DNA from: Bacteroidota bacterium
GTDB taxonomy: Bacteria; Bacteroidota; Ignavibacteria; UBA10030; UBA8401
Length of the DNA stretch: 38,606 nt
Direction of reading: 5' to 3'
Assembly: GCA_023229405.1 (NCBI GenBank)
Contig: JALNZH010000002.1
Coordinates: forward strand, 1 to 38,606
In this document: positions 2,509 to 34,916 of the stretch, piece by piece
How the letters are laid out: every line of letters begins with the position of its first letter
Numbering within the stretch: the stretch's first letter is position 1
Made by a program: the position numbers and the translations under genes
Notes under the pieces: model-generated
The model's input: the letters and a program-made list of their open reading frames with translations, nothing else
Told to the model about the DNA's origin: nothing
The model's database searches: none

Positions 2509-2822
2509 GTTCGGATGGATAAGATATAGAGACGATTCCACTGAAAGACACTATTGCTCAGAAACTGATTCAAAAACAAAAGCTAATTTTTCACCATTGT
2601 TATTCTCGTTTGCCTTGCGCACCTGTGGCGGGTACACCGGCAGGCAGGGATACTTTACCACTAGACTCCCGATAGAAACATTCGGGAGAGACAATGGAGT
2701 TTTTGAGATCAGTGCTCAGTTGTTATTTCGCCGCTTCGTCATACTTTTCATTAGATGTTGGGTGTTGTTTTTGGGATGAATCCGTTTTAGATTGTACTGT
2801 TCTTTATCACTCAGGGGGCTGT

Positions 2823-3439: not shown

Positions 3440-5671
3440 ATGAATACTGAAGCTCATCAGGCGAAACAAGAGTCATCTTCGTGGAGCGGTGATGTGTGGG
3501 GAGGATTGGCAGCGATGCTGGTTGCACTCCCTTCGTCCATCGCGTTTGGAGTGTTGACCTATTCTGTTATGGGGGCTGAATATTCCGGTGTGGGTGCGAT
3601 GTCCGGTATGCTCGGTGCCGCCGCTCTAGGACTTGTTGCACCATTCTTTGGCAAAACCGGCGGACTTATCTCAGCGCCCTGTGCACCGTCCGCAGCCGTT
3701 CTGTCTGCGCTGATTGCCGGTTTAATTGCCGGCAAGGCCAGTACCGGACTTGCTCCGGAACACATCTTTGTCCTCCTTGCGCTTACCGCTCTGCTTGCCG
3801 CAGGACTTCAGATATTCTACGGCGCTATCGGCGGTGGACGCTTAATCAAATTTATTCCCTACCCTGTTGTCAGCGGGTATCTCTCCGGCGTTGGTGTGTT
3901 GATTGCCCTTGGTCAAATTCCGAAACTATTCGGTTATGCCAAAGGGATTTCGCTCTATCAGGGATTAACCTCACCGGAACTCTGGAAATGGGAAGGACTT
4001 GCGGTCGGGATTGTTACCATCGTTCTGATGGGATTAGCGCCGCGGATGACAAAAAAAATTCCTGCTGCTATCCTGGGACTTCTTGGAGGAATTGGTTTTT
4101 ATTTTGTCCTCGCATTCTTTTCGCCATCGATGCTAACTCTCTCCAGTAATCCGCTCATCATCGGTCCTATACAGACATCCGGTTCTTTCTTCGATGTTGC
4201 AGCGAACAGAATGACTTCATTATTTTCCATTGACGTTGCTTCCATCCAGCTTATTATCGTCCCCGCTCTTACTCTTTCAGTGTTACTATCAATCGACACA
4301 CTAAAAACTTGCGTCGGGCTCGACGCACTTACACGGAGCCGGCATAATTCAGACCGGGAATTGATGGGGCAGGGAATTGGTAACTTTGCATCATTTCTTG
4401 TCGGTGGTATGCCGGGCGCAGGAACGATGGGGCCGACACTTGTGAATATTACGAGCGGCGGTCGCACCCCTCGTTCAGGATTTATTGAAGGAATATTTGT
4501 TGTCCTTGCCATTCTTCTCTTAAGCCAGTTGATAGCGTGGGTTCCTATCGGCGCACTTGCCGGCATTCTACTTGTTATTGCGTGGAGGATGTTTGACAAA
4601 AGCATGTTTCGACTGTTGAGATATCCCGAAGGACGGTTGGATTTTGCCGTGATTGCAGGAGTTGTGCTTGTTTCGATGACAGTCGATTTGATTGCAGCTT
4701 CCGGTGTTGGTATTGCACTTGCAATTTTGTTGTTCATCAGGGATCAGATTCACGGTTCGGTTATTCGCCGGAAACTGTACCTGAACCAGATATCGTCAAA
4801 AACTCTCCGCTGTGATGCGGAACGGGAAATACTCAACATGCAAGGGGATCAGGGGGTGTTCTGTGAGCTGCAAGGAAATCTTTTTTTCGGCACCACCGAT
4901 CAACTATTCACTCAGCTCAATACCGACCTGCGAACAAAACGATACATTCTGCTAGACATGCGACGGGTTCAATCTCTGGATTATACAGCTGCGCACATGT
5001 TCGAACAGATGCACGAACAGTTGGCCGAACGCGGCGGACAACTGGTGTTTAGCGGCATGCCTTCAGGATTGCTGGATGAGCGAAACTTTGAACACTATTT
5101 ATCCCAATTGGGTGTCGTCAGTGAAGAAGCGGGAGTAATGATTTCGGAAACTCTGGACGGTGCACTGGAATGGATGGAAGAACGCATTCTCGAAAACGCT
5201 GGTGCAAGCAAAGAAGTGGAGGAGCATTTACTTGATGCAAAAGATTTCGATCTGTTCCGTGAATTCGACGAACGAACAATCAACGAACTGAGAACATGTA
5301 TGAGCGAACTGTCGCTTGCGCCGGAGGAGAAGATCTTCTCGCAGGGAGATGTTGCGGATGAGATCTTTCTGGTACGGCGCGGAAGCGTTCGTGTGATGCT
5401 TCCTCTTGAACGGGGGAAACGTCATCATCTTGCCACTATCGGTACCGGAAATTTTTTTGGTGAACTGGCATTTCTTGATAAGGGAGTCCGCTCTGCTGAT
5501 GTGGAAGCAAAAGTCCCCACGGATCTCTATATCCTTTCCCGTGCACGGTTTAATGAACAGTCCAGATCCAATCCCACCTTCGGCGTTCAAGTCTTCGCCC
5601 GCCTGGCGCACGCTATTGCGTTGCGGCTTCGTCAAACAGATGCCGAGTTAAGAGTGCTTGAAGAGCGGTAA
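3440..5671 (+). CDS. SulP/SLC26-family anion transporter fused to STAS and a cyclic-nucleotide-binding domain
   Basis: About a dozen hydrophobic segments in the N-terminal 430 aa. STAS-like GVFCELQGNLFFGTTDQL..LLDMRRVQSLDYTAAHM. C-terminal cNMP motif FGELAFLDKGVRSADVEA. Confidence 0.85.
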   Translation: MNTEAHQAKQESSSWSGDVWGGLAAMLVALPSSIAFGVLTYSVMGAEYSGVGAMSGMLGAAALGLVAPFFGKTGGLISAPCAPSAAVLSALIAGLIAGKASTGLAPEHIFVLLALTALLAAGLQIFYGAIGGGRLIKFIPYPVVSGYLSGVGVLIALGQIPKLFGYAKGISLYQGLTSPELWKWEGLAVGIVTIVLMGLAPRMTKKIPAAILGLLGGIGFYFVLAFFSPSMLTLSSNPLIIGPIQTSGSFFDVAANRMTSLFSIDVASIQLIIVPALTLSVLLSIDTLKTCVGLDALTRSRHNSDRELMGQGIGNFASFLVGGMPGAGTMGPTLVNITSGGRTPRSGFIEGIFVVLAILLLSQLIAWVPIGALAGILLVIAWRMFDKSMFRLLRYPEGRLDFAVIAGVVLVSMTVDLIAASGVGIALAILLFIRDQIHGSVIRRKLYLNQISSKTLRCDAEREILNMQGDQGVFCELQGNLFFGTTDQLFTQLNTDLRTKRYILLDMRRVQSLDYTAAHMFEQMHEQLAERGGQLVFSGMPSGLLDERNFEHYLSQLGVVSEEAGVMISETLDGALEWMEERILENAGASKEVEEHLLDAKDFDLFREFDERTINELRTCMSELSLAPEEKIFSQGDVADEIFLVRRGSVRVMLPLERGKRHHLATIGTGNFFGELAFLDKGVRSADVEAKVPTDLYILSRARFNEQSRSNPTFGVQVFARLAHAIALRLRQTDAELRVLEER

Positions 5672-6016: not shown

Positions 6017-6085
6017 GAAATTTGCGAACCGCAGTATCGAACGCGGGATATTTGTTTAAAACAATAATTCCACAATTACCACGTT
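6017..6085 (+). repeat. Repeat family copy A (5' part only), directly upstream of CDS 6115
   Basis: About 68 nt matching 7751..7819 with about 4 mismatches (gaaatttgcgaaccgcagtatcgaacgcgggatatttgtttaaaacaataattccacaattaccacg). Lacks the 3' hairpin arm. Confidence 0.85.
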
Positions 6086-6114
6086 CGTCACTATTAGAAT
6101 AAGGAGAAAGGTGT

Positions 6115-7710
6115 ATGTATTTTGTCTATCGTCTAAATAATCTTCTGATATATATTCTATTGCCATTATTTGTTATTAAAGGTGATGTTTATTCCCAAGA
6201 ATTGCAGAAGTATTTTAATAATCATGACATTCATCAAGTGTTTTTGCAACAGAATATTTATATGCAGGAGTTTGATATTCAAAATATTTATGCCGGCACA
6301 AAAATATTTATTGATACAACGGTGCAAAACCACTTTGTGCCGAATATATTGTTAAATAGCAAAAGAAGTAATAATAGAAACTCTCAAACGAGTACGCATG
6401 TTGTTGACACAGTATTTATTATAAAATCGAACGTTACCGTAAGGTATATTTATTCTTACAACAACATTGAGATTATTGAAGAATTATCCCAGCAATTGGT
6501 AAATAATCTCTGGACAAATAGTGGACGGGTAACAAAAAAATACGATGCAAACGATCATTGCGTAACGAATTTGATTGAACAATGGATAAATAACCAATGG
6601 GTCAACAACCTTCACATGTCCTATACATATGATGCAAAGGGAAATTTGCTATCGCAAATCTGGGAACTTTGGACAAACAATCAATGGATTAATCTTGTAC
6701 GATTTACTAATACTTATGATGGCAACAATAATATGCTTACCTACTCCGCTGAGGGTTGGGGAAATGGCCAATGGAATAAAGATTACCGCTATTCGTATAC
6801 TTATACTGCAAAGGGATTTCAGAGTTCGCAAGTATATCAACAGGGTACGAATAACCAATGGGCAAATGTCCGTCAATACACCTATTCCTATAATGTAAAC
6901 GGATATTTGCTATCATATTTACATCAAAAATGGTCGAATAGCCAATGGGTAAAAAATAATCAGGCAACATATACGTATGATGCAAGCGGTAATCAGATAT
7001 TAGAATTTTATCAACAATGGAATGTAAATGCTTGGGTAAACAGTGCTCGCTATACTAGCACATATGATGCAAGTGGCAATTTGACAACAAAGTTGAATGA
7101 GCAATGGACTGGAAATCAATGGGCTTCCTTTTTTCGATATTCATATTCCTACGACATTAATGGTAATCAGACTTCGTTTTTATTTGAGGAAAGAAAAAAT
7201 AACCAGTGGGTGAATAGTGCTCGACAGACGTACAAATTTTTATTGGTTAGCCTATTATCAGAAGGAACGTACGAAGAATGGAAAGATTCAGTATGGATAC
7301 CTTCGAATGGGAATTTCTATGCATCCGACAACGCCGGTAACTATTTTTCATATAACTGCCACAGAATTAATTTTATCTATAAATTAATAGTGACCAGTGT
7401 AAATCAAAACAACGGATTAAAATTAAATCAATATTTTCTAAATCAAAATTTCCCAAATCCATTCAATCCGTCAACCACAATACTTTTTAGAGTACCTGAA
7501 CGAAGTGATGTGAGAATTACCATTTTTAATACTCTCGGTCAAATAATCTCTGAGATTCTGAACGAAACGAAAGAGGCGGGTTTGCATGAACACGAATTCA
7601 AGGCGTCCGAACTATCATCTGGAATATACTATTACAAGATTGAAGCTGTCTCAGAACAGAATCCAGGGAGAGTGTTTGTTGATACGAAGAGGATGGCCTT
7701 GATTAAATAA
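6115..7710 (+). CDS. T9SS-sorted secreted protein built of ~29-aa Trp/YD-like repeats
   Basis: RBS aaggag at 6101. Signal peptide present. Eight to nine units of NNQW(V/I)N..R.(T/S)Y(T/S)YD(A)(S/K)GN. C-terminal tail NQNFPNPFNPSTTILFRVPE..GIYYYKIEAV..KRMALIK. Confidence 0.8.
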   Translation: MYFVYRLNNLLIYILLPLFVIKGDVYSQELQKYFNNHDIHQVFLQQNIYMQEFDIQNIYAGTKIFIDTTVQNHFVPNILLNSKRSNNRNSQTSTHVVDTVFIIKSNVTVRYIYSYNNIEIIEELSQQLVNNLWTNSGRVTKKYDANDHCVTNLIEQWINNQWVNNLHMSYTYDAKGNLLSQIWELWTNNQWINLVRFTNTYDGNNNMLTYSAEGWGNGQWNKDYRYSYTYTAKGFQSSQVYQQGTNNQWANVRQYTYSYNVNGYLLSYLHQKWSNSQWVKNNQATYTYDASGNQILEFYQQWNVNAWVNSARYTSTYDASGNLTTKLNEQWTGNQWASFFRYSYSYDINGNQTSFLFEERKNNQWVNSARQTYKFLLVSLLSEGTYEEWKDSVWIPSNGNFYASDNAGNYFSYNCHRINFIYKLIVTSVNQNNGLKLNQYFLNQNFPNPFNPSTTILFRVPERSDVRITIFNTLGQIISEILNETKEAGLHEHEFKASELSSGIYYYKIEAVSEQNPGRVFVDTKRMALIK

Positions 7711-7750: not shown

Positions 7751-7853
7751 GGAATTTGCGAACTGCGGTATCGAACGCGGGATATTTGTTTAAAACAATA
7801 ATTCCTCAATTACCACGGTCGGCAATTGAGGAATTATGTTGTGCTCCCAATGG
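7751..7853 (+). repeat. Repeat family copy B (most complete), just downstream of CDS 6115..7710
   Basis: 5' part equals copy A. Contains a perfect 14-bp hairpin 7798-7811/7824-7837 with a 12-nt loop. 3' part is homologous to 32041..32104. Confidence 0.85.
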
Positions 7854-8128
7854 TCTGTACCGAAGGAATCCATTTGAAAACCGTCGGTATTTTAGCTGAC
7901 GAACCGGTATTACAATCACCTTTTTAAAACAACATAGTTCAACTTAGCTGGTAGATCAGTTTTAACAAATTCTTTGTTCTACAAAATACAATTGGGTACA
8001 TTGCATGAAGGAAGTAGAAACATTGAGTCACGAACATTGTTCTCAAATTCCGATACTCCCGGACTCTTGATGCGCTATTGTGTTCAGAAGTTTTATTACT
8101 CACAAGCACATGTTATTTCGAATCCATT

Positions 8129-8815
8129 ATGATGCTACGAAACAAGCCACGGCAAAATAAAATCACTGTACCAAAAATCCGGATATTACTTATAGAAGAC
8201 AACCGTATTTTACGGGATGGCATCACTGCCATGATCAATGGACACAGCGATATTATCGTTGTAGCTGTTTCAAACGGAAGAGATCACACTTTATTAAAAG
8301 CACGTACAGTAAAACCGGATCTTGTGCTAATGGATTTTGGATTGGCGAGTCAAAACAGTTTGAGTGTTGTTCAGACCTTGAAAAATGATTTTCCTGCCAT
8401 CAAAATAATTGGAATGGGTCTCGTTCCCACCCAAATGGATATTATGGAATTTGTGCAAGCAGGGGCTGATGGTTTTATCCTAAAAAATGTAGCCGTGGGA
8501 GAAGTGATCAAAACAATTCGCGCGGTAGTTGCCGGAGAAAAATCACTTCCTCCTCCCATGACCGAATCGCTCTTTTCTCAAGTGGTGGAGCATGCCCTTT
8601 TGAAAGGGAAAAGAAACATTTCGAGTGCCATTAGAATGACCCTACGCGAAAAGGAAATTATTGCTTTAATTGTTGAGGGAATGAGTAACAAACATATTGC
8701 CGAAACACTTCATATTGCTACGTTTACCGTAAAAAGCCATGTGCATAATATATTGGAAAAATTAGCTTTGCACAGCCGGCTTCAGATTGCTATGCACGCC
8801 CGCGACGAAAAATAA
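8129..8815 (+). CDS. NarL/FixJ (LuxR-HTH) family response regulator, orphan, paralogue 1
   Basis: ORF 8078..8815 (TTG); first ATGs at 8129/8132. Receiver motifs IRILLIEDN, DLVLMD, GADGFILKN. HTH LREKEIIALIVEGMSNKHIAETLHIATFTVKSHVHNILEKL. Collinear with 13025..13750. Confidence 0.85.
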   Translation: MMLRNKPRQNKITVPKIRILLIEDNRILRDGITAMINGHSDIIVVAVSNGRDHTLLKARTVKPDLVLMDFGLASQNSLSVVQTLKNDFPAIKIIGMGLVPTQMDIMEFVQAGADGFILKNVAVGEVIKTIRAVVAGEKSLPPPMTESLFSQVVEHALLKGKRNISSAIRMTLREKEIIALIVEGMSNKHIAETLHIATFTVKSHVHNILEKLALHSRLQIAMHARDEK

Positions 8816-8978
8816 TTATACTTTCGTTTCGACCGATCCTCTCCGAAGCACTTCTCTGGAACATCCGCAGGATTTGACAGTATCACGTACAGCTGATATA
8901 CAACAGTTTTCTGAATTTGCGAGGTGAGCAATTACAAAATTGTTGTTTGTCCGACATTTATCGAAGCAAAGTATACTT

Positions 8979-9060
8979 AAGGATTAATTCCTTTTCCATC
9001 CTTTTGGACGATTACAATTGAATGCAATCATCGATATACTCATTCATAATTCAGAAGAGA
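8979..9060 (+). promoter_or_regulatory. Conserved bipartite upstream element, copy 1 (box1 8999-9015, N12, box2 9028-9046)
   Basis: aaggattaattccttttccaTCCTTTTGGACGATTAC-aattgaatgcaa-TCATCGATATACTCATTCAtaattcagaagag. Aligns with copies at 13982, 15114 and 15463. Lies about 118 nt before ATG 9178. Confidence 0.7.
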
Positions 9061-9177
9061 AAGTTACTCCTTCATCGAGTAATAGAAACAGTGCTGATGG
9101 GTGCTGAATTAATTTGCACGATCTTTCATTGATTGTGTGTTGTAAGAATATTCATGTAAAATATAAAAGGAACGGTA

Positions 9178-9981
9178 ATGAAAAAGAAAAATAGTATTGC
9201 GTCTTGCATCTTCATCGGTCTTTTAATTTTAGCAGTTGGATGCAAAAATTCAGATGATCCAGTAACTTCCAATTCGAAAGCTTCAGCAGTCAATCTTTCA
9301 GTTGGGTTCTCAAAAGTAGGTTCAAGCAATTCACTTTTAAAAACAACTTCTGCTGATTCATTGCGCATAGACAGTGTTGTGGCTGTATTCCAAAGAATAA
9401 AATTTGAAGCACACATAGAAACTGCAACCATCGATTCCATGGGACATGATACAATGGAAACAGAGAGTGAATCAAACTATACATTTAAAGGACCGTTTAT
9501 TGTTCATATTCGAGATTCAAGTGCCATAAATTTTGCAAACCAATTGCTTCCTACCGGTGTATATACCGGGATTAAATTCAAAATTCACGCTATGCAGAAC
9601 GGTGAAAGATACGAAGACAGCGACGATTACAATCACCGAAAAGTTGCTGCAAATAATGATTCAATGATGGGTTATAGTATCGCTGTATGGGGCGCAATAC
9701 AAAAAGATGGAGTATGGGTACCGTTTGCTTTCAAATCAAACATTGAAGTTGAATATAAACTGAAAGGCAATTTTACAATTGCGGTCTCAACAACATCTAT
9801 CAATATGGCCCTTCGTTTTAATACGGCGGATTGGTTTAAAGACATTCAAACGGGTTTATTGTTGGATCCGACCATCTCCACATCAGAAAACAGAGCTACT
9901 ATCAACAACTCGATTAAAAAATCTTTTGAAAAAGGTTATGGCGGCAGAGATTTCAATGACGATGGACATCCGGATGATTAA
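9178..9981 (+). CDS. Lipoprotein of unknown function (possibly DUF4382-like beta-sandwich)
   Basis: Lipobox MKKKNSIASCIFIGLLILAVGCKN. Segment FKGPFIVHIRDSSAINFANQLLPTGVYTGIKFKIH resembles DUF4382-type lipoproteins; the family call is tentative. Confidence 0.6.
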   Translation: MKKKNSIASCIFIGLLILAVGCKNSDDPVTSNSKASAVNLSVGFSKVGSSNSLLKTTSADSLRIDSVVAVFQRIKFEAHIETATIDSMGHDTMETESESNYTFKGPFIVHIRDSSAINFANQLLPTGVYTGIKFKIHAMQNGERYEDSDDYNHRKVAANNDSMMGYSIAVWGAIQKDGVWVPFAFKSNIEVEYKLKGNFTIAVSTTSINMALRFNTADWFKDIQTGLLLDPTISTSENRATINNSIKKSFEKGYGGRDFNDDGHPDD

Positions 9982-10010
9982 CTCACGTTACGAAAAGAAT
10001 TAAAATCAAT

Positions 10011-10079
10011 CGTCATTCCCGCACGTTCTTAGCGGGAATCTATATAATGGATGCCCGACTAAAGCATTCGGGCATGACG
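10011..10079. repeat. REP-like nested palindromes
   Basis: attcccgc/gcgggaat (10015-22/10032-39) and atgcccga/tcgggcat (10051-58/10068-75), enclosed by cgtcat..atgacg. Confidence 0.8.
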
Positions 10080-10154
10080 ACTTTACTTTATTAGGCGGTT
10101 ATTTTCTCTGCATAACATTAGTGATTAAGATAAAATAGAACCACAATGCGGCAA

Positions 10155-10189
10155 AAATCCTACAAACATACGTTGTAGGATTTTTTTTT
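10155..10189 (+). terminator. Rho-independent terminator (A-run upstream, so possibly bidirectional)
   Basis: 11-bp stem aaatcctacaa/ttgtaggattt, 7-nt loop, then a T9 run. Confidence 0.7.
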
Positions 10190-10230
10190 GACTTCGAGAT
10201 ATGATGCAATTGAGATATTCCAATAAATCA

Positions 10231-10339
10231 CTCACGTTACGCAAAACAAGAAAAACGGTCATGGTGAGCAAGGCGCAGGTTAAGATAGTTACGTCATTCT
10301 TCTGCCGAAGGCATCCCTATCGGGAGACGCATCCTTTCC
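10231..10339. repeat. Right arm of the 109-nt inverted repeat
   Basis: Reverse complement of 1..109 (105/109). Its first ~20 nt (ctcacgttacg.aaaa) also recur at 9982..10000. Confidence 0.85.
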
Positions 10340-10623
10340 CGCAGGGATTCCTTCGGAACAAACAGCAAAGGATTTGCTCAGGATGACCGCTGTTTCTGTG
10401 CCGTGTCGAACCATTTTTCCTTTTTGCGTAACATCAGTAAATCATCCCTTTGGACTATTGTTTTACCGATGTATCTATTACTTATTAGTGTATTATAGAT
10501 AAGCACCACACATTCTTCTGAAAAGCTGCAACTTGCTATAAATAGATGGACATCTGGTGCATGCAATTTTTACCAATAGAATTTGTTATTCATTCAAAAA
10601 AACAAATCCGGAGATAAAAGATC

Positions 10624-12372
10624 ATGAAGAAAAAAGAGGCACCATCTCATCGTAATGTCCTTCCAAAATCTCCTACCAGTATTCAGGGATTGGATGAAAT
10701 TACGGGCGGAGGATTACCAAAAGGGAGACCGACGCTTATTTGTGGCGGCGCGGGTTGTGGAAAGACTCTTTTTGCTATGGAGTTTCTTGTGCGTGGAGCA
10801 ACGCTGTACAATGAGCCGGGTGTCTTTATATCGTTCGAGGAAACAGAGAAAGAACTTACGGCAAATGTTGCTTCGTTAGGATTCGATTTAGACAAACTTG
10901 TAAAGCGGAAAAAAATTTGGTTGGAGCACATTCATATTGAACGAAATGAACTCGAACAAAGCGGTGAATACGATCTGGAGGGATTGTTTATTAGGATACA
11001 TTCTGCAATTGAAAAAATTGATGCAAAACGTGTTGTTCTTGATACGATGGAAATACTTTTTTCAGAATTGCCAAATCCACAGATACTGCGCAAAGAGCTA
11101 CATCGGTTGTTCCAATGGCTGAAAAAAAGAGGAGTAACAACAATTGTTACTGCAGAGCGAGGCGAAGGTGCCTTAACTCGTGAAGGATTGGAAGAGTATG
11201 TTTCTGATTGCGTCATCCTGCTTGATCATCGCGTGATCGATCAATCATCTATTCGTCGACTGCGGATTGTAAAATATCGCGGTTCATCGCATGGTACAAA
11301 CGAGTATCCTTTCCTTATTGATGAAGATGGTTTTTCTGTTCTTCCTGTCACTTCTCTGGGACTGAATCACATCTCATCCCCAGAGAGAATTTCTACCGGT
11401 CTTCCGCGTCTCGACACCATGCTCTCCGGTAAAGGATATTTCCGAGGCAGTACGGTGCTTGTTTCGGGCACTGCCGGTACTGGCAAGACGAGCATTGCCG
11501 CACAATTTGTTGAAGCGGCATGCAAGCGAGGAGAACGCGTTCTCTTTTTCACATTCGAAGAGTCTTCAAATCAGATTGTTCGCAATATGCGCTCCATTGG
11601 AATAGATTTAGAACCATGGGTAAACAAAGGATTGCTTCAGTTTCATGCAACACGCCCCACACTCTATGGTTTAGAAACTCATCTGTCAACGAGCATCAAA
11701 TTGGTTAATAAATTTAGACCAAGCATCGTGATACTCGATCCTATTAATGCATTCGTGCTGGGAGAAAACCAAACGGAAGTCAATATCATGTTGGTGCGCC
11801 TTGTAGATTTTTTAAAGATGAGACGGGTCACTGCGTTTTTCACAAGTCTGACATCCGGCAACGATACTATGGAATCGACCGACGTGTACATCTCATCCTT
11901 GATTGATACATGGCTGCTTGTTCGTGATTTAGAAATTGGTGGCGAACGGAACAGAGGTTTGTATGTGCTTAAATCGCGCGGCATGGCGCACTCCAATCAG
12001 ATCCGCGAGTTTAGACTGACAAATAACGGAATTGAGCTGCTTGACGTGTACGTTGGCTCAGAAGGTGTTTTGACCGGTTCGGCGCGATTATCACAAGAAA
12101 CAAAAGATGAGGCTGAACAATTATTGCGTCAGCAGGAGATCGGATCAAAACAATTTAAATTGGAACGTAAACGCGATGCATTAGCAGCTCAGATTGTTGT
12201 ATTGCGATCTGAATTTGAGGCTGAAGCATCAGATGCACTTAAAGTGATCGGGATTGAAAAAGCAATAAATGAACGCTTCACGCTGGACAAGATAAAAATG
12301 AGTAAGAGCCGAAGAGGTGATGCATCGACAAAAATATCGTACGCTTCAAACGGAAACGGAAGAAAAAAATAA
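10624..12372 (+). CDS. kaiC: KaiC-family double-domain autokinase/ATPase with an extended C-terminal tail
   Basis: Two RecA-like halves with Walker A motifs (CGGAGCGKT; GTAGTGKTS). GLDEITGGGLPKGRPTLI and ..TDVYISSLIDTWLLVRDLEIGGERNRGLYVLKSRGMAHSNQIREF are collinear with cyanobacterial KaiC. 582 aa. Confidence 0.9.
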   Translation: MKKKEAPSHRNVLPKSPTSIQGLDEITGGGLPKGRPTLICGGAGCGKTLFAMEFLVRGATLYNEPGVFISFEETEKELTANVASLGFDLDKLVKRKKIWLEHIHIERNELEQSGEYDLEGLFIRIHSAIEKIDAKRVVLDTMEILFSELPNPQILRKELHRLFQWLKKRGVTTIVTAERGEGALTREGLEEYVSDCVILLDHRVIDQSSIRRLRIVKYRGSSHGTNEYPFLIDEDGFSVLPVTSLGLNHISSPERISTGLPRLDTMLSGKGYFRGSTVLVSGTAGTGKTSIAAQFVEAACKRGERVLFFTFEESSNQIVRNMRSIGIDLEPWVNKGLLQFHATRPTLYGLETHLSTSIKLVNKFRPSIVILDPINAFVLGENQTEVNIMLVRLVDFLKMRRVTAFFTSLTSGNDTMESTDVYISSLIDTWLLVRDLEIGGERNRGLYVLKSRGMAHSNQIREFRLTNNGIELLDVYVGSEGVLTGSARLSQETKDEAEQLLRQQEIGSKQFKLERKRDALAAQIVVLRSEFEAEASDALKVIGIEKAINERFTLDKIKMSKSRRGDASTKISYASNGNGRKK

Positions 12373-12387
12373 TTAAAGGAATGTAGT

Positions 12388-12765
12388 GTGAATATTGAAC
12401 ATGAAAAATTGAAAACGCGCCGCTCTAAGGCTCTACTTGTTAAGGAAAATGAGCCATCTGTCAAAGCGGGAGATTCCAGATGGGATTTGAATCTGTATGT
12501 TGTAGGCGAGAGTCCGAAAGCCGTCACTGCATTTAACAATCTTAAAATAATTTGTGAGGAACAATTAAAAGACAAGTATCAAATAAACGTGATCGATCTT
12601 TTAAAGAATCCACAGAGTGCGCACGATAACCAAATTGTTGCTGTTCCGACATTGGTGCGTAAACTACCGTTGCCGGAGAGGAACATTATTGGAGATCTTT
12701 CAAATAGAGAGCGCGTATTGGTTGGATTAGGTCTTAAAGAACTTGGTGAACTTACGGTTGCGTGA
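12388..12765 (+). CDS. kaiB: KaiB (thioredoxin-like fold) with an N-terminal extension
   Basis: [65 protein letters not shown] is collinear with KaiB. GTG start lies 15 nt after the kaiC stop and follows aaagga. Confidence 0.88.
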
Positions 12766-12793
12766 AAATCTGCGACAGTGGATGAAAAGTAAA

Positions 12794-12826
12794 TTCTGAT
12801 AATATTCAATAGGAATATTATCAGAA
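12794..12826 (+). terminator. Perfect 14-bp hairpin after kaiB; possible terminator without a U-tract
   Basis: ttctgataatattc-aatag-gaatattatcagaa. Not followed by a T-run, so the function is uncertain. Confidence 0.3.
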
Positions 12827-13024
12827 GGAGTCTCAAAAATGAATTGTATTGTTATTCTCTACGAGTCGTAGACCGAACAAAGTCCCAAAGGGACAAGTGA
12901 GGAATCTCGTTTGAATAATTAAAGACAAAACCGAGATTTCTCTCTTGCTAAAGCGGGATCGAAATGATAGTGACGAGGTATTTTTAAGACGGCTTTTAGT
13001 AGCACCTTATAGCGTTTTGCACAC

Positions 13025-13750
13025 ATGTTCCAAAGGAAAGCAATCGGTATTAACTTCATTCCGTATGCTACCACGAAACAAATTGGACAAAAAATAGTGT
13101 CTATGCCTAAAATTCGAATACTCCTTGTAGAAGATAACCGCATTTTGCGTGATGGCATTACTGCGATGATCAACGGTCAGAAAGATGTCATGGTTGCGGC
13201 TGTTTGCGACGGCAGGGATGACACCATATCGAAAGCACGCACATCGAAACCGCAAGTGGTGTTGATTGATCTCGGTTTGGAGAGTCAGAACAGTTTGGAC
13301 GTAGTGCAGTTGTTGAAGAAGGAGTTTCCGGATATCAAAATTATTGGGATGGGTCTTAATCCATCACAATCGGATATTATGGAATTCGTGCAAGCAGGGG
13401 CGGAGGGTTTTATACTTAAAAACGCAACGCTTGAAGAGGTGATCAATACAATTCGAGCAGTAGCCTGCGGAGAAAAAATACTCCCTTCCTTAATGACCGG
13501 ATCACTCTTTTTTCAAGTGGCAGAACATGCACTCCTGAAAGGAAAAAGAAACCTTAATAGCGCCGTCCGTATGACAGAGCGTGAAAAAGAAGTGATTGCA
13601 TTGATTGTTGAGGGAATGAGTAACAAGCAAATTGGTGACAATCTCAGTATCGCAACGTTCACCGTTAAAAGTCATGTACATAATATTCTGGAAAAGTTAG
13701 CTTTACAAAGCCGTCTTCAAATTGCAATGCACGTCAGTAATGGAAAATAA
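13025..13750 (+). CDS. NarL/FixJ (LuxR-HTH) family response regulator, orphan, paralogue 2
   Basis: ATG 13025; alternative starts GTG 13094 and ATG 13103 (MPKIRILLVEDN). Residues KIVSMPKIR align with KITVPKIR of paralogue 1, favouring an upstream start. Same receiver and HTH motifs as 8129..8815. Confidence 0.85.
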   Translation: MFQRKAIGINFIPYATTKQIGQKIVSMPKIRILLVEDNRILRDGITAMINGQKDVMVAAVCDGRDDTISKARTSKPQVVLIDLGLESQNSLDVVQLLKKEFPDIKIIGMGLNPSQSDIMEFVQAGAEGFILKNATLEEVINTIRAVACGEKILPSLMTGSLFFQVAEHALLKGKRNLNSAVRMTEREKEVIALIVEGMSNKQIGDNLSIATFTVKSHVHNILEKLALQSRLQIAMHVSNGK

Positions 13751-13808
13751 TTTTAGTTCCAATCTCACCAATCCACTCAGAAGTAGTACATCATATTCCT
13801 GAAAAGAG

Positions 13809-13847
13809 AAACACAATCGAGAAGTTTATAGCCTCATTGTGTTTTTT
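13809..13847 (+). terminator. Probable rho-independent terminator of the regulator gene
   Basis: 9-bp stem aaacacaat/attgtgttt with an 18-nt loop, followed by a T-run. Confidence 0.5.
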
Positions 13848-13981
13848 CTGTTGTATACTGGGAATTCCGTCGAACTTCGATCACTCACTCTCTGGCTATC
13901 AAAGCAGCAATCGCCGTCAACCCGATGGATGGCATAGAGTAACTCTCAACTACACCATTACTTGGTATTATTTACAACACT

Positions 13982-14063
13982 TAAGAGTTAGCTCTTTTAT
14001 TGTCCTTTTGGGCGATTACTTCTGGAGGCAGTCATGAGTATACTCATTCACGATTCAGGAGAG
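13982..14063 (+). promoter_or_regulatory. Conserved bipartite upstream element, copy 2 (box1 14003-14019, N12, box2 14032-14050)
   Basis: taagagttagctcttttattgTCCTTTTGGGCGATTAC-ttctggaggcag-TCATGAGTATACTCATTCAcgattcaggagagg. Lies between terminator 13809 and ATG 14169. Confidence 0.7.
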
Positions 14064-14168
14064 GATTTCATTTCTTCATTGATCAAAGAGAACTTCTGCT
14101 GATTCTGCAACGTACGCCTTATTAAAGGGATTACATTTTTAAGTGTTATGATTCATTTAAGGAGATTT

Positions 14169-15026
14169 ATGAAAAACGCAAATATTCAAATCCACACACA
14201 ATCAGCGATACGACCGGCTATCATTATGTCTATTTCGCTTGCAATGTTTCTTTTCGCAGCGTGCGAATCGAATTCACCATCCACCCAACAAGACATCAGT
14301 GGTCCGTCTTCAACAGCAACAACAATTAACAAAAAAGTTGCTTCTTTTGACGCTGTATCGAACCTTGCTGTTCTAGCGCCGGTAAATCTTGGTTTAGCCG
14401 ACGGATTTGCAATTCTGTCGTACGCTGGAATCACCAATACCGGTATCACAAGTATTACTGGAAATCTTGGAGCGAGTCCTATAACCGGTGCTTCACTGAC
14501 TGGATTTGAGACAGTAGCTTTAGTTGGAACAACGTATACCGTTGATGCTAGCGGTCCTGTAGGTTACGTAACAGATGCTACGATGTTAACTCAGGCAATG
14601 CTTGATGTAACAGTTGCATATAATGATGCCGCAGGACGAACGGAAAATCCAATTGGTATAGAAGGAAATCTTGGCGGACAGACACTTCTTCCGGGACTTT
14701 ATAAATCTACCGGTGCGCTTGAAATCTCATCCGGCGATCTTACGCTCGATGCTCAAGGTGATGTGAATGCTGTTTGGATTTTTCAAGTAGCGTCCAGTTT
14801 CAATATGACATCAGGTCGCCAAGTGTTCTTAACCGGCGGTGCGAAAGCTTCCAACATTTTTTGGCAGGTCGGTAGTTCTGCAACATTTGGAACAACTGCA
14901 GTAATGAAGGGAACCATTTTGGCGTATGCAACAGTAACACTTGCTACAGGTGCATCATTGGAAGGCAGAGCATTAGCTCGAACCGCCAATGTTACATTAG
15001 ATGCTAATACCATTGTGAAGCCGTAA
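14169..15026 (+). CDS. Lipoprotein with a DUF3494 / type-1 ice-binding-protein-like beta-helix domain (subtype A)
   Basis: ORF 14148..15026; ATG 14169 follows aaggag. Lipobox LFAAC. Family motifs [88 protein letters not shown]. Confidence 0.85.
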   Translation: MKNANIQIHTQSAIRPAIIMSISLAMFLFAACESNSPSTQQDISGPSSTATTINKKVASFDAVSNLAVLAPVNLGLADGFAILSYAGITNTGITSITGNLGASPITGASLTGFETVALVGTTYTVDASGPVGYVTDATMLTQAMLDVTVAYNDAAGRTENPIGIEGNLGGQTLLPGLYKSTGALEISSGDLTLDAQGDVNAVWIFQVASSFNMTSGRQVFLTGGAKASNIFWQVGSSATFGTTAVMKGTILAYATVTLATGASLEGRALARTANVTLDANTIVKP

Positions 15027-15066
15027 ACTAATTGGATTGATTTCTCAATTATTGGCTGAACATCGG

Positions 15067-15097
15067 AACCCCGCTCTCACAAGGGCGGGGTTTTTTA
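15067..15097 (+). terminator. Rho-independent terminator
   Basis: GC-rich stem ccccgc(t)c/gggcgggg followed by T6. Confidence 0.75.
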
Positions 15098-15113
15098 TTG
15101 ATCGCTAACTACA

Positions 15114-15190
15114 AAGGATTAACTCTTTTTCCATCCCTTCGGGCGATTACACTCGAACACATTCATCTGTATACTCATTCACAGTGTAAT
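15114..15190 (+). promoter_or_regulatory. Conserved bipartite upstream element, copy 3 (box1 15134-15150, N12, box2 15163-15181)
   Basis: aaggattaactctttttccaTCCCTTCGGGCGATTAC-actcgaacacat-TCATCTGTATACTCATTCAcag. Ends about 50 nt before sORF ATG 15239. Confidence 0.7.
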
Positions 15191-15238
15191 TGAATTTATA
15201 TAATAAAAACGATACACAAAAATTAAAAGGAGCGAATC

Positions 15239-15394
15239 ATGGAAATTATTATTGGTCTTATCGCTTATGCCGTAGTTTTATATTTCCTTGTATCCTTTGG
15301 ACGATTTTCCAAAGAATGTGATAATTCTATGGGGGAATACTTTGGTAAACGGAATGTAAGGAAAAGTAAGAAAGCAATCGCACAACTTTCATAG
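15239..15394 (+). CDS. Small membrane protein, 51 aa (below the ORF-track cutoff)
   Basis: Strong RBS aaggag 6 nt before the ATG. MEIIIGLIAYAVVLYFLVSFGRFSKECDNSMGEYFGKRNVRKSKKAIAQLS has one TM helix and a basic tail. Sits directly behind element copy 3. Confidence 0.5.
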   Translation: MEIIIGLIAYAVVLYFLVSFGRFSKECDNSMGEYFGKRNVRKSKKAIAQLS

Positions 15395-15462
15395 AGATGT
15401 ACTAGAATTGATTGTTTGGTTGTTTCGATTTTCTGTTCCAGTGAGCGCTACAAATCATACTA

Positions 15463-15544
15463 AAGGATTAACTCTTTTTCCGTCCTTTTGGGCGATTACT
15501 TTTCAACATAGTCATCGGTATACTCTTCCACAATTCAGGGGAGA
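15463..15544 (+). promoter_or_regulatory. Conserved bipartite upstream element, copy 4 (box1 15483-15499, N12, box2 15512-15530)
   Basis: aaggattaactctttttccgTCCTTTTGGGCGATTAC-ttttcaacatag-TCATCGGTATACTCTTCCAcaattcaggggagatg. About 190 nt before ATG 15735. Confidence 0.7.
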
Positions 15545-15734
15545 TGTACTCTCTTAGTACACCGACGGATATTTTCACTGAAAAGAAGCCAAATGACAAA
15601 TTCAAATAATGAATACGAACAACGAGAACTTGACATCAAGGAAGAGTTTCGAAAAAGAATCAACTAAAAAAGTAAGTATGAAATCGTCTTCGTGACACAA
15701 CCCGTAATTAATTAATAAATACAGAAAGAATGTT

Positions 15735-16574
15735 ATGAAAAACCTATCCACAAATTCAACACCTATCGTAGTAAGCCGATGGATGCAATTCGTCGGTATC
15801 TCACGAACAGTGGGATTAACAGTAATATTACCGGCATTTCTTTTTATTGCTGGCTGCAAAAAAGATGATGCAATTGCTTCACCTCCATCCTCAATAACCA
15901 TTCCACTTCAAACTACCGTACAGGCGGTAGTTAATCTTCGTTCCGATGCAGGTTTTGCAATTCTTGGAGGCTCATTGGTTTCCAATGTTCCAACATCCGC
16001 CATTACAGGGGATATTGGATTGAGTCCGGCAGCACGCTCATTCATCACCGGTTTTGGTTTAACAGAGGTAACGGGGACAATTTATGCCGCCGACGATATT
16101 TCTCCTGCAGGTGTGTCTGCGATGTTAACAGCGGCAAAGGGCGATTTAACCACAGCATATAATGATGCTGCAGGACGTACATCAACAGATATAGTGCTCC
16201 TTGCCGGAAATCTTGGCGGACTGACACTGACGCCAGGTCTCTATAAGTCGAGCGGTTCGCTTGAAATTTCATCAGGCGATCTTACGTTCGATGCCAAAGG
16301 AAATGCACATGCTGTTTTTATCATTCAGATTGCATCCACACTAAACACAACATCGGGTCGAAAGATTATTTTAAGCGGCGGTGCAAAAGCATCGAACATT
16401 TTTTGGCAGGTTGGTACTTCAGCAACTCTTGGAACAACCTCTGTATTCAAGGGAACCATCATGGCTGATCAATCGATCTCGCTGAATACCGGTGCAATAG
16501 TTGAAGGAAGATTGTTAGCGCGCATTGCTGCAGTAACGTTAGCCGGCAATACTGTTGTAAAACCGACACCATAA
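15735..16574 (+). CDS. Lipoprotein with a DUF3494 / ice-binding-like domain (chimeric subtype B-A-B)
   Basis: Lipobox FLFIAGC. Motifs [110 protein letters not shown]. Confidence 0.85.
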
Positions 16575-17244: not shown

Positions 17245-18330
17245 ATGAATACCGATACAAAACACACAACAAATAATTTAGCACGATTGACACGCTTCTT
17301 TGGAGTGATCCTGCCAGTTGCGTTGATCTTCTCAGTCACAGCAATGTCTCAAACATTGACTGCGGTAAATTTAGGATCATCCGCCAATTACGTTATTCTG
17401 GCTGGTTCATTAGTTTCAAACATTCCGGCTTCTGCGGTTACAGGGAATATCGGTTTGAGTCCCGCAGCGGGCAGCAGCATAACCGGATTTGGTTTAACTG
17501 AAGTTACCGGGACCATCTACACGGTTGATGCTACCGGTCCTGTCGGTTCGACAATGGCACCGACAATACTGACGGCGGCAAAGGGTGATTTAACCATTGG
17601 GTACAACGATGCCGCAGGACGCACACCAATACCAACGGGTACATATTTAAATCCGGGATCAGGAAATATTGGCGGATTAACACTTGTTCCGGGTCTGTAT
17701 AAATTTACAAGCGATGCTTCAATAACGGGATCTGATGTTACTCTCACAGGCACCGCAACAGATGTCTGGATATTCCAGATTGCTGCTGGTCTGAACGTCG
17801 GCACTGGCATTAAAGTTATTCTTGCCGGTGGTGCAAGAGCAGCAAACATTTTTTGGCAGGTCGGTAGCTCGGCGACCCTGGGTACAACCTCTGTATTCAA
17901 AGGAACGATCATGGCTGGTCAATCAATCTCGTTGGGTACTGGAGCATCTTTGGAAGGTAGGGCGTTAGCAAGTAATGCCGCAGTTACATTAGAATCTAGT
18001 GTTGTTACCAGACCGTCGACAACGACCGCTGTAGCAAATGGAATCGTAACGCCACAACAATATGAACTCTTCCAAAATTATCCGAACCCATTCAACCCAT
18101 CCACACAGATTCATTATAATCTTGAGAAGGCTGTTCAGGTTTCTCTCAAGGTCTACAATCTTCTTGGTGATGAAGTTGCAACACTGGTGAAGGGTCCTCA
18201 AGAAGCAGGTAGTTATGCTGTGCCGTTCAATAGCAATATGGGAACACGTAATCTTTCAAGCGGTGTCTACTTTTACCGTTTGGAAGCCGGGCCATTTCTT
18301 TCAACAAAAAAATTTACACTTGTAAAGTAG
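17245..18330 (+). CDS. T9SS-sorted DUF3494 / ice-binding-like protein (subtype B)
   Basis: RBS ggaga and a signal peptide. Motifs [90 protein letters not shown]9SS tail LFQNYPNPFNPSTQIHYNL..GVYFYRLEAG..KKFTLVK. Confidence 0.88.
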   Translation: MNTDTKHTTNNLARLTRFFGVILPVALIFSVTAMSQTLTAVNLGSSANYVILAGSLVSNIPASAVTGNIGLSPAAGSSITGFGLTEVTGTIYTVDATGPVGSTMAPTILTAAKGDLTIGYNDAAGRTPIPTGTYLNPGSGNIGGLTLVPGLYKFTSDASITGSDVTLTGTATDVWIFQIAAGLNVGTGIKVILAGGARAANIFWQVGSSATLGTTSVFKGTIMAGQSISLGTGASLEGRALASNAAVTLESSVVTRPSTTTAVANGIVTPQQYELFQNYPNPFNPSTQIHYNLEKAVQVSLKVYNLLGDEVATLVKGPQEAGSYAVPFNSNMGTRNLSSGVYFYRLEAGPFLSTKKFTLVK

Positions 18331-18417: not shown

Positions 18418-20763
18418 ATGAACATTAACACAACAAATAAATTACGCCGATGGTCTCGTTTTGTCGGAGCAATGGTGTCAGCAGCTTTGATGATGTCTGT
18501 CACCGCCAAGTCTCAATCATTGATGCCAGTAAATCTGGGGTCGACCTCCAATTTTTCAATTTTGGCTGGTTCATTAATCTCAAACATTCCAACGTCTGCT
18601 GTTATTGGTGATATCGGTTTAAGCCCTGCCGCTGGCAGTGGTGTAATTGGATTTGGACAAACTGAAGTGACAGGAATAATATATACGGTCGATGCTACTG
18701 GTCCTGTCGGTTCAGTAATTGATGCTACGAAGCTAACTACAGCGCAGGGTGATTTAACGATTGCATACAACGATGCTGCAGGGCGTACGCCAATTCCGAC
18801 GGGTACATTTTTGAATCCGGGATCGGGAAATATTGGAGGATTAACACTTGCTCCAGGATTGTATAAATTCACAAGTGACGCATCGATTTCAGGTTCTGAT
18901 GTTACGCTCACAGGCAGCGCAACAGATGTCTGGATATTCCAGATTGCAGCTGGTCTTAATGTAGGCACTGGTATTAAAGTTATTCTTGCCGGTGGTGCAA
19001 AAGCATCGAACATTTTTTGGCAGGTTGGTACATCAGTCACACTGGGAACAACTTCGGTCTTCAAGGGAACCATTTTGGCAGATCAATCTATCTCGCTAAA
19101 TACCGGTGCAACAGTTGAAGGAAGATTATTAGCCCGCATTGCTGCGGTTACATTGGCCTCTAATGCTGTTACCAATCCGACCATCATCACTTTGCAAGCT
19201 CCATTGTTAACATCACCAGCTGACGAAGCAACACATCAGTCAACATCTGTTGAGTTGAAATGGTTTGCTTCAACTGGAGACAGCGTGTATCATTTACAAA
19301 TTGATACGAACAACGTTTTTGGTACAACGGTGTATAACGATTCAACTCTTACAGGAACCCTGCATAAAACAGCAGGTTTAATGAATGGAACAAAATATTT
19401 CTGGCGCGTAAGTGTAAAAGATAGTGCGAAGTATGGTGGCGGAACAAGCGCGTATTCGACCATTCGAAGTTTTACAACATTGAATCTCATATCTATTCCG
19501 CAACCACCAGTGTTAGAATTGCCGGCTGACCTGGCAACGAATCAATCAACAACAATTGAATTGACGTGGTTTGCTGCCGTTGGAGACAGCGTGTATCATT
19601 TACAAATTGATACAAGCAAATTTTTTAGTTCAACGGTGTATAACGACTCAACTCTCAAAGGTAGCTTGCATAAAATTACAGGCTTAAAGAATGCAACAAA
19701 ATATTACTGGCGTGTAAGTGTAAAAGACAGTGCAACGAATGGTTTCGGAACGAGTGCTTATTCAACAGTACGAAGTTTTACAACATGGAACGTTACACCA
19801 ACAACACCTCTTTTGCCGGTCACTCTTGGTATGACTGATCGATTTGCGATTTTATCGTATGCAGGAATAACCAATACAGGTCCTACAAGTATTATCGGAG
19901 ATGTTGGAGTGAGTCCTCTTGCTGCTTCGTATATGACCGGATTTGGTACACCCAATATCGTCGGAACGATCTATGGAGTTGACGCAACAGGTCCTGAAGG
20001 CTCGGTAGTTTTTCCTTCGATGTTAACACAGGCCATGGGTGATTTAACGACAGCATTTAACGATGCGGCAGGACGAACAGTAGATCCGATCGGTGTGTCC
20101 GGAAATCTTGGTGGACTTACTCTCTATTCTGGTTTGTATAAATCCACTGGGTCACTTGAAATATCATCAGGCGATCTTACGCTCGATGCTCAAGATGACA
20201 CAGCTGCTGTTTGGGTTTTTCAAATAGCTTCCAGTTTCGATATGACATCAGGTCGCCAAGTTTTCCTTACGGGCGGTGCAAAAGCTTCCAATATTTTTTG
20301 GCAAATGGGAAGTGCGGCAACGTTTGGAACGACGACTATAATGAAGGGAACCATTATGGCGTATACAACAATTACGTTTGCTACAGGCGCATCGTTGGAA
20401 GGCAGAGCATTAGCGCGAACGGCTGGTATTACATTGCAAAGCAATACCATCGGCAAAGTTGCGGGACCGACTTCTGTTCGGTCAGAAAATGTACCCCAAG
20501 AATTTACACTTTTACAGAATTACCCGAATCCGTTCAATCCAACAACAAATATTGAATTCACCGTTCCATTCAATGGACGAGCAACATTGAAAGTATTCAA
20601 TGCGATCGGACAGGAAGTTGCGACATTGTTCAACGGTGAAGCGGAAGCAGGAAAATACAATACAGTGCAATTCAACGCTTCAGGATTGGCAACTGGATTG
20701 TATTTTTCACGATTGGAGTTTGGCGGTGTAGTGCAGTTGAAAAAAATGATGCTGGTAAAATAA
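18418..20763 (+). CDS. T9SS-sorted protein: DUF3494(B) - 2x FN3-like repeats - DUF3494(A) - sorting tail
   Basis: Domain 1 about 18520-19176. Two 102-aa-period repeats at 19201-19479 and 19513-19785 (..W(F)A..GDSVYHLQIDT..Y(F/Y)WRVSVKD..). Domain 2 about 19813-20457. Tail LLQNYPNPFNPTTNIEF..GLYFSRLEFG..KKMMLVK. Confidence 0.88.
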   Translation: MNINTTNKLRRWSRFVGAMVSAALMMSVTAKSQSLMPVNLGSTSNFSILAGSLISNIPTSAVIGDIGLSPAAGSGVIGFGQTEVTGIIYTVDATGPVGSVIDATKLTTAQGDLTIAYNDAAGRTPIPTGTFLNPGSGNIGGLTLAPGLYKFTSDASISGSDVTLTGSATDVWIFQIAAGLNVGTGIKVILAGGAKASNIFWQVGTSVTLGTTSVFKGTILADQSISLNTGATVEGRLLARIAAVTLASNAVTNPTIITLQAPLLTSPADEATHQSTSVELKWFASTGDSVYHLQIDTNNVFGTTVYNDSTLTGTLHKTAGLMNGTKYFWRVSVKDSAKYGGGTSAYSTIRSFTTLNLISIPQPPVLELPADLATNQSTTIELTWFAAVGDSVYHLQIDTSKFFSSTVYNDSTLKGSLHKITGLKNATKYYWRVSVKDSATNGFGTSAYSTVRSFTTWNVTPTTPLLPVTLGMTDRFAILSYAGITNTGPTSIIGDVGVSPLAASYMTGFGTPNIVGTIYGVDATGPEGSVVFPSMLTQAMGDLTTAFNDAAGRTVDPIGVSGNLGGLTLYSGLYKSTGSLEISSGDLTLDAQDDTAAVWVFQIASSFDMTSGRQVFLTGGAKASNIFWQMGSAATFGTTTIMKGTIMAYTTITFATGASLEGRALARTAGITLQSNTIGKVAGPTSVRSENVPQEFTLLQNYPNPFNPTTNIEFTVPFNGRATLKVFNAIGQEVATLFNGEAEAGKYNTVQFNASGLATGLYFSRLEFGGVVQLKKMMLVK

Positions 20764-34493: not shown

Positions 34494-34497
34494 ACGT

Positions 34498-34908: not shown

Positions 34909-34916
34909 AAAGTCTC

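Follow-up and report, generated by a model that had tools for sequence, protein, structure and literature searches.

What kind of signal stands four times, in nearly the same form, between the genes of a Bacteroidota bacterium of the Ignavibacteria? The question is raised by contig JALNZH010000002.1 of assembly GCA_023229405.1, of which positions 1 to 38,606 (the window, meaning here the whole stretch of DNA that was analysed) carry an intergenic element of about 80 nt. A first-pass annotation of this DNA had described four plus-strand copies at 8979-9060, 13982-14063, 15114-15190 and 15463-15544, each consisting of a conserved box1, a gap of 12 nt and a conserved box2, and the sequence at all four places is as described. 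These copies probably represent one promoter with its operator, ~70 bp in length, of the sigma-70 type and dependent on an activator, which is read through the adjacent NarL-type response regulator. The broader conclusion that the element acts as DNA, namely as a promoter with an operator (the sum of three such readings), is held with considerable confidence.

A repeat-family search of the window returned the four plus-strand copies as one family. The pattern TCCYTTYGGRCGATTAC-N12-TCATNNNTATACTC (31 specified bases, taken from the earlier consensus) has four zero-mismatch sites in the window, these being the four copies only, with none found in 100 dinucleotide shuffles and 0 expected by chance. 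A hidden Markov model (HMM) of the element scored the four copies at 77-92 bits (E 1e-22 to 2e-27). A scan of two public collections with GGRCGATTAC-N12-TCATNNNTATAC identified 11 real loci from genome assemblies and six from metagenomes (loci are given L numbers below), several of which duplicate each other or the window. All of the real loci are from Ignavibacteria/Bacteroidota metagenome-assembled genomes (MAGs), while six other matches are chance occurrences in unrelated DNA. A pass with the HMM allowed the identification of additional, more diverged copies within the same loci. An alignment of at least 32 distinct copies, drawn from the window and from ~15 MAG or metagenome loci of Ignavibacteria/Bacteroidota, spans 90 columns and has zero gaps; the DNA upstream of the element is unalignable and the leaders downstream are rich in insertions and deletions. 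Copy 2 deviates from the box1 consensus (AAGAGTTAGCTCTTTTATTG).

In the hexamer TATACT of box2, none of the 32 distinct copies departs from T1, A2 and T6 (TAnnnT; columns 60, 61 and 65), with diverged copies showing TATATT, TACACT, TATGTT, TAAGTT or TATCAT, variation thus being found at positions 3-5. A TAnnnT pattern with positions 1, 2 and 6 fixed is that by which a -10 element of the sigma-70 type is recognized. TTACnn is always found exactly 17 bp upstream of this hexamer, and its T37 and T38 are invariant in the 32 copies. The earlier suggestion that the fixed gap marks a DNA target or promoter is borne out by this arrangement, with TTAC at the 3' end of box1 and TATACT in box2 17 bp further on. 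The gap is fixed in length and largely unconstrained in sequence because it forms most of the promoter spacer; it had been described as free, which is not fully correct, since every one of the 32 distinct copies has A as the 11th base of the gap and most have C as the 4th. Information per column peaks at AAAGGATTA, at ATCCTTT, at ATTAC, and at TCAT together with the T, A and final T of TATACT. The bases preceding the -10 (CGG; C57, G58 and G59) carry little information, which argues against a -10 of the GGGTAT or CGT type. Readings of the boxes as sigma-54 or Bacteroidetes TTTG / TAnnTTTG promoters were rejected from the alignment, by eye only.

Upstream of the putative -35, in box1, there is a 7-bp inverted repeat, AAAGGAT-N13-ATCCTTT, spanning about -69 to -43, whose arms are conserved in sequence and which is the most conserved part of the element in diverged copies. 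Between the arms lies a pyrimidine tract (TCYTTT-like), about one helical turn from each. AAAGGA, TCYTTT and TCCTTT are spaced at 10-11 bp steps and thus share a face of the helix, where they make up an inverted repeat and a direct one. Counting from a predicted start ~7 nt past the -10 hexamer, on which all these positions depend, the left arm AAAGGAT is placed at -69 to -63, the pyrimidine tract with its TCYTTT-like unit at about -58 to -51, the right arm ATCCTTT at -49 to -43, GGGCG at -41 to -37, TTACnn at -35 to -30, TCAT at -19 to -16 and the -10 TATACT at -12 to -7.

Window coordinates follow from the 32-copy alignment, where column N corresponds to 8975+N in copy 1, 13979+N in copy 2, 15110+N in copy 3 and 15459+N in copy 4, all on the plus strand. 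The predicted promoter/operator of copy 1 (8978-9047) precedes a lipoprotein gene (9178-9981); its inverted-repeat arms are at 8978-8984 and 8998-9004, its -35-like TTACAA at 9012-9017 and its -10 TATACT at 9035-9040, with a predicted start near A9046. Copy 2 (13982-14051; -10 TATACT at 14039-14044) precedes a DUF3494 gene (14169-15026) and has, besides its deviating box1, a degenerate left arm (AAGAGT). Copy 3 (15113-15182; -10 TATACT at 15170-15175) begins ~20 nt past the strong intrinsic terminator of the preceding gene (15065-15094) and precedes an open reading frame (ORF) for a 51-aa membrane peptide (15239-15394). Copy 4 (15462-15531; -10 TATACT at 15519-15524) precedes a second DUF3494 gene (15735-16574). 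The element ends 118, 106, 49 and 191 nt before the next start codon in copies 1 to 4, respectively, in agreement with the distances annotated earlier.

Two NarL/LuxR-type response regulators are encoded on the plus strand among these copies: RR1 (8078-8815; receiver and GerE helix-turn-helix, HTH), a candidate binder of the element whose real start is probably later (~215 aa), and RR2 (13025-13750; likely start 13103). They are 73% identical, the GerE/HTH region being nearly identical, and a sequence search shows the regulator to be a full NarL-family protein with VraR, NarL, DevR and DesR as its closest solved structures. The first-pass annotation had linked the element to these proteins, and gene order strongly supports that link. 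In a test independent of the motif, homologues of RR2 were searched (3587 matches) and the contigs of seven of them (69-76% identical) were fetched: all seven, although retrieved by protein alone, have the element within about 620 nt (~230-610 nt) downstream of the gene for the regulator. The genes next to it there usually encode CsbD (105 aa), a giant DUF3494 protein and an OmpA-like protein. Among the loci found through the motif, a NarL-type regulator is nearby in 8 of 11. Genes for KaiC (10624-12372) and KaiB (12388-12765) are located on the plus strand directly upstream of RR2 (together 10624-12765). This kaiBC-regulator linkage is found in many, not all, related loci, KaiBC lacking adjacency to the regulator in L024 and L037-L040; therefore it is the regulator, and not KaiBC, that is the constant partner of the element. 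The two regulators had been named as the only DNA-binding proteins encoded nearby. This was incomplete, as an extracytoplasmic function (ECF) sigma factor is encoded at 34917-35453; it is 19 kb away and unlinked to the element elsewhere.

The argument from the heptamer TACTCAT, which had been noted to fit the NarL half-site consensus, is not supported, and involvement of a NarL-family regulator is plausible on other grounds, namely gene order and the upstream repeat. The heptamer is the tail of the -10 plus three bases, has no partner, and shows at its fifth base the lowest conservation of any column in box2; copy 4, with TACTCTT, departs from TACYYMT. Single heptamers occur 38 times in the window, and 7-2-7 NarL sites do not exceed chance there (one match with 2 mismatches against 3.0 expected). 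The palindrome GTATAC, also pointed out in box2, is lost in diverged copies (TATATT, TACACT, TATGTT). If the regulator binds, the inverted repeat AAAGGAT-N13-ATCCTTT, a feature missing from the first-pass annotation, is a better candidate site than the heptamer. RR1 and RR2, which are NarL/VraR/DesR-like, would then bind the upstream array as dimers or oligomers and recruit RNA polymerase to a promoter whose -10 would be TATACT and whose weak -35 would be TTACnn exactly 17 bp upstream. The regulon so switched on would comprise DUF3494 ice-binding proteins, CsbD, YtxH, BrkB, the small membrane peptide, the lipoprotein and parts of the kaiBC-regulator cluster itself. In this scheme we infer where transcription starts, which sigma factor takes part, that the regulator binds and that its effect is activation. 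The receivers of RR1 and RR2 have retained Asp as the phospho-acceptor, together with the Lys and the acidic pair; they have a Gly at the conserved Thr/Ser switch of VraR and NarL, and give low Pfam receiver scores (55-63 bits); judged from these residues, their activation may be atypical.

The gene order of the window is RR1; copy 1 and the lipoprotein gene; a partial copy, kaiC, kaiB and RR2; copy 2 and a DUF3494 gene; copy 3 and the 51-aa peptide; and copy 4. After copy 4, three genes (15735-16574, 17245-18330 and 18418-20763) carry four more DUF3494 domains, two of which belong to the third gene, and beyond these an outer-membrane protein and PAS kinases are encoded. Elsewhere, copies precede genes for DUF3494, CsbD, YtxH, BrkB/YihY, KaiB, a receiver protein and type-IX-secreted proteins. 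Every examined copy has the orientation of the next gene; in L002 and L005 this includes copy pairs arranged head-to-head, with csbD in one direction and ytxH in the other. A start codon could be assigned in 23 of 35 copies, 32-125 nt past the -10; apart from one diverged copy, the range is 63-125 nt. In other MAGs (L002, L004, L005, L024, L028 and L037-L040) the element precedes genes for CsbD, YtxH and BrkB/YihY, which are hallmarks of general stress elsewhere; often these are then followed by genes for very large DUF3494 proteins (850-1700 aa) with Big_5 or fn3 repeats and by an OmpA-like gene. Copy 4 is separated from its DUF3494 gene by a gap of 190 nt (15545-15734) that holds only short unrelated ORFs, and the equivalent of copy 4 in L007 has a CsbD-like gene directly after it; on this comparison, csbD seems to have been lost after copy 4 in the window.

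A partial fifth copy, CATCCCTTTGGACTATT, was identified on the plus strand at 10443-10459, ~165 nt upstream of kaiC (0.03 matches to the pattern expected by chance). It consists of the right arm and the flank of the -35, and no -10 is found at the usual distance. Similar partial copies are located upstream of kaiC in L010 and L012, and the partial copy may be a feedback-control site for the kaiCB-regulator operon.

The same conservation could also be read at the level of RNA, in that a promoter further upstream would drive transcription of the ~80 nt, either as the domain with which a riboswitch-like, cis-regulatory RNA senses its signal or as the 5' part of a small RNA, and the variable leaders would be expression platforms. 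A conserved core followed by variable downstream structures is indeed the usual layout of riboswitches; a 7-bp stem AAAGGAU/AUCCUUU is possible, with U-A to U-G alternation at its base and a double change that keeps a pair in two copies; helices occur in the leaders; and an inverted repeat, with one compensatory change in L009, brackets the element and leader in the class of copy 2 (13967-13984 and 14139-14156). The AAAGGAU/AUCCUUU stem pairs in 92% of cells across the 32 copies, but its covariation score is 0.124 against 0.122 in shuffles, with 268 of 500 shuffles reaching the observed value, and single-sided changes mostly break pairs (A-C in four copies at pair 5-27). For a second candidate stem, the hairpin CGUCC-UUUU-GGGCG, covariation is likewise no better than in shuffles. 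RNAalifold finds one stem only in the 32 copies over 90 nt (-3.0 kcal/mol), and the helix between box1 and box2 proposed from four copies vanishes. The copies of the window fold with ordinary energies relative to shuffles (z-scores -0.64, -1.74, -1.20 and -0.86), each into a different structure, and the loops show no insertions or deletions across the 32 copies. No relevant match was found in Rfam (whole window at gathering scores, element regions at permissive E-values), the weak matches at 15026-15108 being the terminator. Furthermore, no conserved promoter is found upstream of the element, copy 3 and its relatives lie so close behind an intrinsic terminator that there is no room for one, and the conserved TAnnnT has no rationale in RNA. 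The conservation of the element fits DNA recognition rather than RNA structure, and the RNA explanation is considered quite unlikely.

Among the other explanations, the element might be the promoter of a dedicated alternative sigma factor (of the SigB/SigF kind for general stress, or ECF), with GATTAC as -35 and CGGTAT as -10 and with the regulator not a binder. Genes for CsbD and YtxH, classical members of the SigB regulon of Bacillus (PMC7824861), follow the element in several MAGs; there is a loose resemblance of GATTAC-N16-CGGTAT to GTTTaa-N13-15-GGGTAT; promoters of alternative sigma factors typically have both boxes very highly conserved; and an ECF sigma gene is present in the window (34917-35453). 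However, C57, G58 and G59 are weak while A63, C64 and T65 are strong, and the conserved hexamer is therefore TATACT and not GGGTAT, which would be shifted by 3 nt. The spacing is 16 rather than the 13-15 of SigB, the AAC / CGT pair of ECF promoters is missing (read off the alignment, TAC replaces AAC and CGG is low in information), no sigma gene is linked to the element in any other locus, and the inverted repeat at -69 to -43, most conserved in diverged copies, is outside any sigma footprint. Such a promoter is unlikely. A promoter/operator read by an unlinked factor or a repressor, with the NarL-type regulator merely the first gene of a conserved cluster, is a rather improbable alternative: only gene order speaks for the regulator, a 20-bp arm spacing is unusual for the NarL family, and the partial palindrome of box2 around GTATAC overlaps the -10 as repressor operators often do, but the regulator adjoins the element in 7/7 loci found via the protein, even where KaiBC and kinases differ, and no other DNA-binding gene is consistently nearby. 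That the copies encode a tiny minus-strand peptide (M-x5-N-R-P-K-G..., its ATG complementary to the CAT of TCAT, its stop in TTAACT and the gap representing four free codons) is hardly credible. A minus-strand ORF of 11-15 codons does run through every full copy (e.g. from 9031 down to 8984), the length of the gap is divisible by three, 32 of 35 copies retain the ATG, and the variable columns 27, 30 and 33 of box1 would be synonymous third positions of Lys, Pro and Arg codons. The ORF is judged coincidental because its stop falls at codon 12, 13 or 16 depending on the copy, yet GGATTAAC, the most conserved part, stays conserved past the early stops; moreover, third positions of Gly and Asn almost never vary, the start is lost in both L024 copies, there is no ribosome-binding site, and transcription would run away from every associated gene, at copy 3 into the terminator. 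With this ORF rejected and with folds and covariation as given above, the element is neither coding nor a structured hairpin, as had been proposed. A generic dispersed repeat (resembling miniature inverted-repeat transposable elements or repetitive extragenic palindromes) or an invertible promoter switch could account for multiple intergenic copies and for the 9-bp perfect inverted repeat around copy 2 and its leader, but is extremely improbable. In the two assemblies with several strict matches (C13_metabat.bin.24 and STD1_190), all matches fall in this gene neighbourhood, and therefore the element is not a genome-wide repeat, a possibility the first-pass annotation had named; copies always point toward the next gene, terminal inverted repeats and target duplications are absent, the bracketing repeat is confined to one class, the orientation is the same in every assembly, and no recombinase gene is nearby in the window.

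Several observations weigh against a sigma-70-type promoter read through the NarL-type regulator. Its putative -35, TTACnn, is a poor match to TTGACA: TTACnn at 17 bp or ATTACn at 18 bp gives only 2-4 of 6 matches. Three conserved features have no assigned reader, namely TCAT (-19 to -16), the invariant A at -21 (two bases before TCAT) and GGGCG (-41 to -37), and near-identity over ~75 bp exceeds what a -10, a -35 and one dimer site would need. Measured between their centres, the two arms of the inverted repeat lie 20 bp apart, wider than a classical dimer site of the NarL family, and the middle TCYTTT tract shifts its register between copies. In copies L002_3210 and L040, an A-to-G change in the left arm is accompanied by T-to-C in the right arm, which would agree with pairing in RNA but is equally expected of a symmetric site for a protein. 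The contigs found through the DUF3494 protein and the 51-aa peptide were all genomic, so that the start site and all position numbers are predictions from the DNA. Finally, the link between regulator and element is one of gene order, and the regulator may merely be the upstream neighbour in a conserved cluster.

DesR of Bacillus subtilis is a cold-responsive member of the NarL family that acts at Pdes, and the regulator matches its structure (4ldz) with E 8e-19 in a sequence search. Pdes and related DesR promoters were likened to the array of AAAGGA / TCYTTT / TCCTTT at ~10-11 bp steps, and the targets are cold-related in both; however, the half-site sequence here is apparently unrelated, there is no adjacent DesK-like membrane kinase, binding is here a prediction only, and the regulon consists of ice-binding and general-stress proteins rather than the desaturase or ABC transporter of DesR. 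The 7-2-7 operators of NarL (TACYYMT-NN-AKRRGTA) are served by the same regulator family, NarL being the second-best solved match, and are likewise inverted-repeat dimeric sites, but the heptamer consensus is not realized as a site in the element, whose repeat has arms of 7 bp with 13 bp between them. SigB promoters of Bacillus (GTTTaa-N13-15-GGG(A/T)A(A/T)) share the hallmark genes csbD and ytxH and are also highly conserved two-box promoters; they differ in that their box sequences and spacing do not fit the element, no sigma, RsbV or RsbW genes are linked to it, and control here is seemingly exerted via a response regulator. In Pseudomonas putida, a module of KaiC, histidine kinase and response regulator has been described whose members interact physically and which promotes stress resistance (bioRxiv 10.1101/2022.01.26.477890). 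Such non-cyanobacterial Kai modules resemble the arrangement of kaiC and kaiB directly upstream of the regulator in the window and in several relatives, with PAS kinases nearby, whereas no target promoter motif has been described in Pseudomonas. As KaiBC is not a constant neighbour of the regulator, being absent from that position in the five loci named above, a Kai input would be optional or lineage-specific.

Downstream of the predicted start, the leaders show features of their own. The ATTCAGGRGAG tail that had been counted with the element is present, but it is part of the transcribed leader past the predicted start and not of the promoter, and it is explained by a leader helix. After copy 2, minimum-energy folds pair TCAGGAGAGG (14055-14064) with CTTCTGCTGA (14093-14102) around a small hairpin (14055-14102, plus strand). 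From single-sequence folds and inspection, this helix is found in the minimum-energy fold of ~8 of 18 leaders, and TCAGGAGAGG has CUUCUnCUGA, ~30 nt downstream, as its pairing partner in leaders of the copy-2 class and in some of those of csbD; automatic alignment of the leaders gave no consensus fold. The loop of the leader hairpin is often UCAUCGA (window, L007, L009, L013 and L019), which repeats TCATCG of box2 43-46 nt downstream. The helix suggests that certain genes may be under further control of their own at the level of RNA. A short hairpin and a T run come next in some relatives, ~40 nt before the start codon (in the window at about 14117-14140, weak). Copy 2 and its whole leader are bracketed by the inverted repeat already mentioned, with core AACACTTAA / TTAAGTGTT (13967-13984 and 14139-14156), and between its end and the ribosome-binding site for DUF3494 there are ~15 nt. 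The repeat has a 9-bp perfect core and is seen in the copy-2 gene class only; L013 and L019 retain it, and in L009 T-A has become A-T by a compensatory change.

Other features of the window were also identified. The ECF sigma gene (34917-35453) belongs to a minus-strand envelope-stress module (33786-35453) together with genes for a possible anti-sigma factor (34498-34908) and an LTXXQ/Spy-like protein (33786-34493), and a RelB antitoxin gene is located at 31531-31788. A gene for a type-IX-secreted protein with weak RHS-repeat similarity (6115-7710) contains 87-nt tandem-like repeats (6578-7171) and is flanked by near-identical 72-nt stretches (6019-6090 and 7753-7824). At 3440-5671, a transporter of the SulP family fused to STAS and cyclic-nucleotide-binding domains is encoded, following a stand-alone receiver protein (2694-3380).

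In kind, the proposed promoter/operator is an ordinary activator-dependent one; no description of the motif, of the gene combination or of this pairing of regulator and regulon was found in Rfam or in the literature searched. What goes beyond the routine is the long, rigid conservation, the coupling of ice-binding with general-stress proteins and the frequent input from kaiC-kaiB. The motif defines a compact regulon in uncultured Ignavibacteria-like bacteria in which DUF3494 ice-binding proteins are tied to CsbD, YtxH and BrkB, and it points to one specific response regulator as the switch. With the 70-bp module, genes for stress and cold can be annotated in metagenomes, and it can also serve as a promoter in reporters. 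As this regulator is found directly behind kaiC-kaiB in many genomes, the element is a candidate output of Kai homologues in bacteria that are not photosynthetic, where few targets of these proteins are known. To our knowledge, no general-stress system of the SigB, RpoS or EcfG type has been described in Ignavibacteriota. Tentatively, and as a possibility we regard with some doubt, the element may be the output promoter of an unrecognised general-stress and freeze response in this group, with the NarL-type regulator carrying a signal that is fed in many genomes by KaiC-KaiB and PAS kinases. Acting on an unusually long, rigidly spaced 40-bp array, the regulator would switch on CsbD, YtxH, BrkB and secreted ice-binding proteins together. 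If this is true, the motif would be a direct read-out of what KaiBC homologues control outside cyanobacteria.

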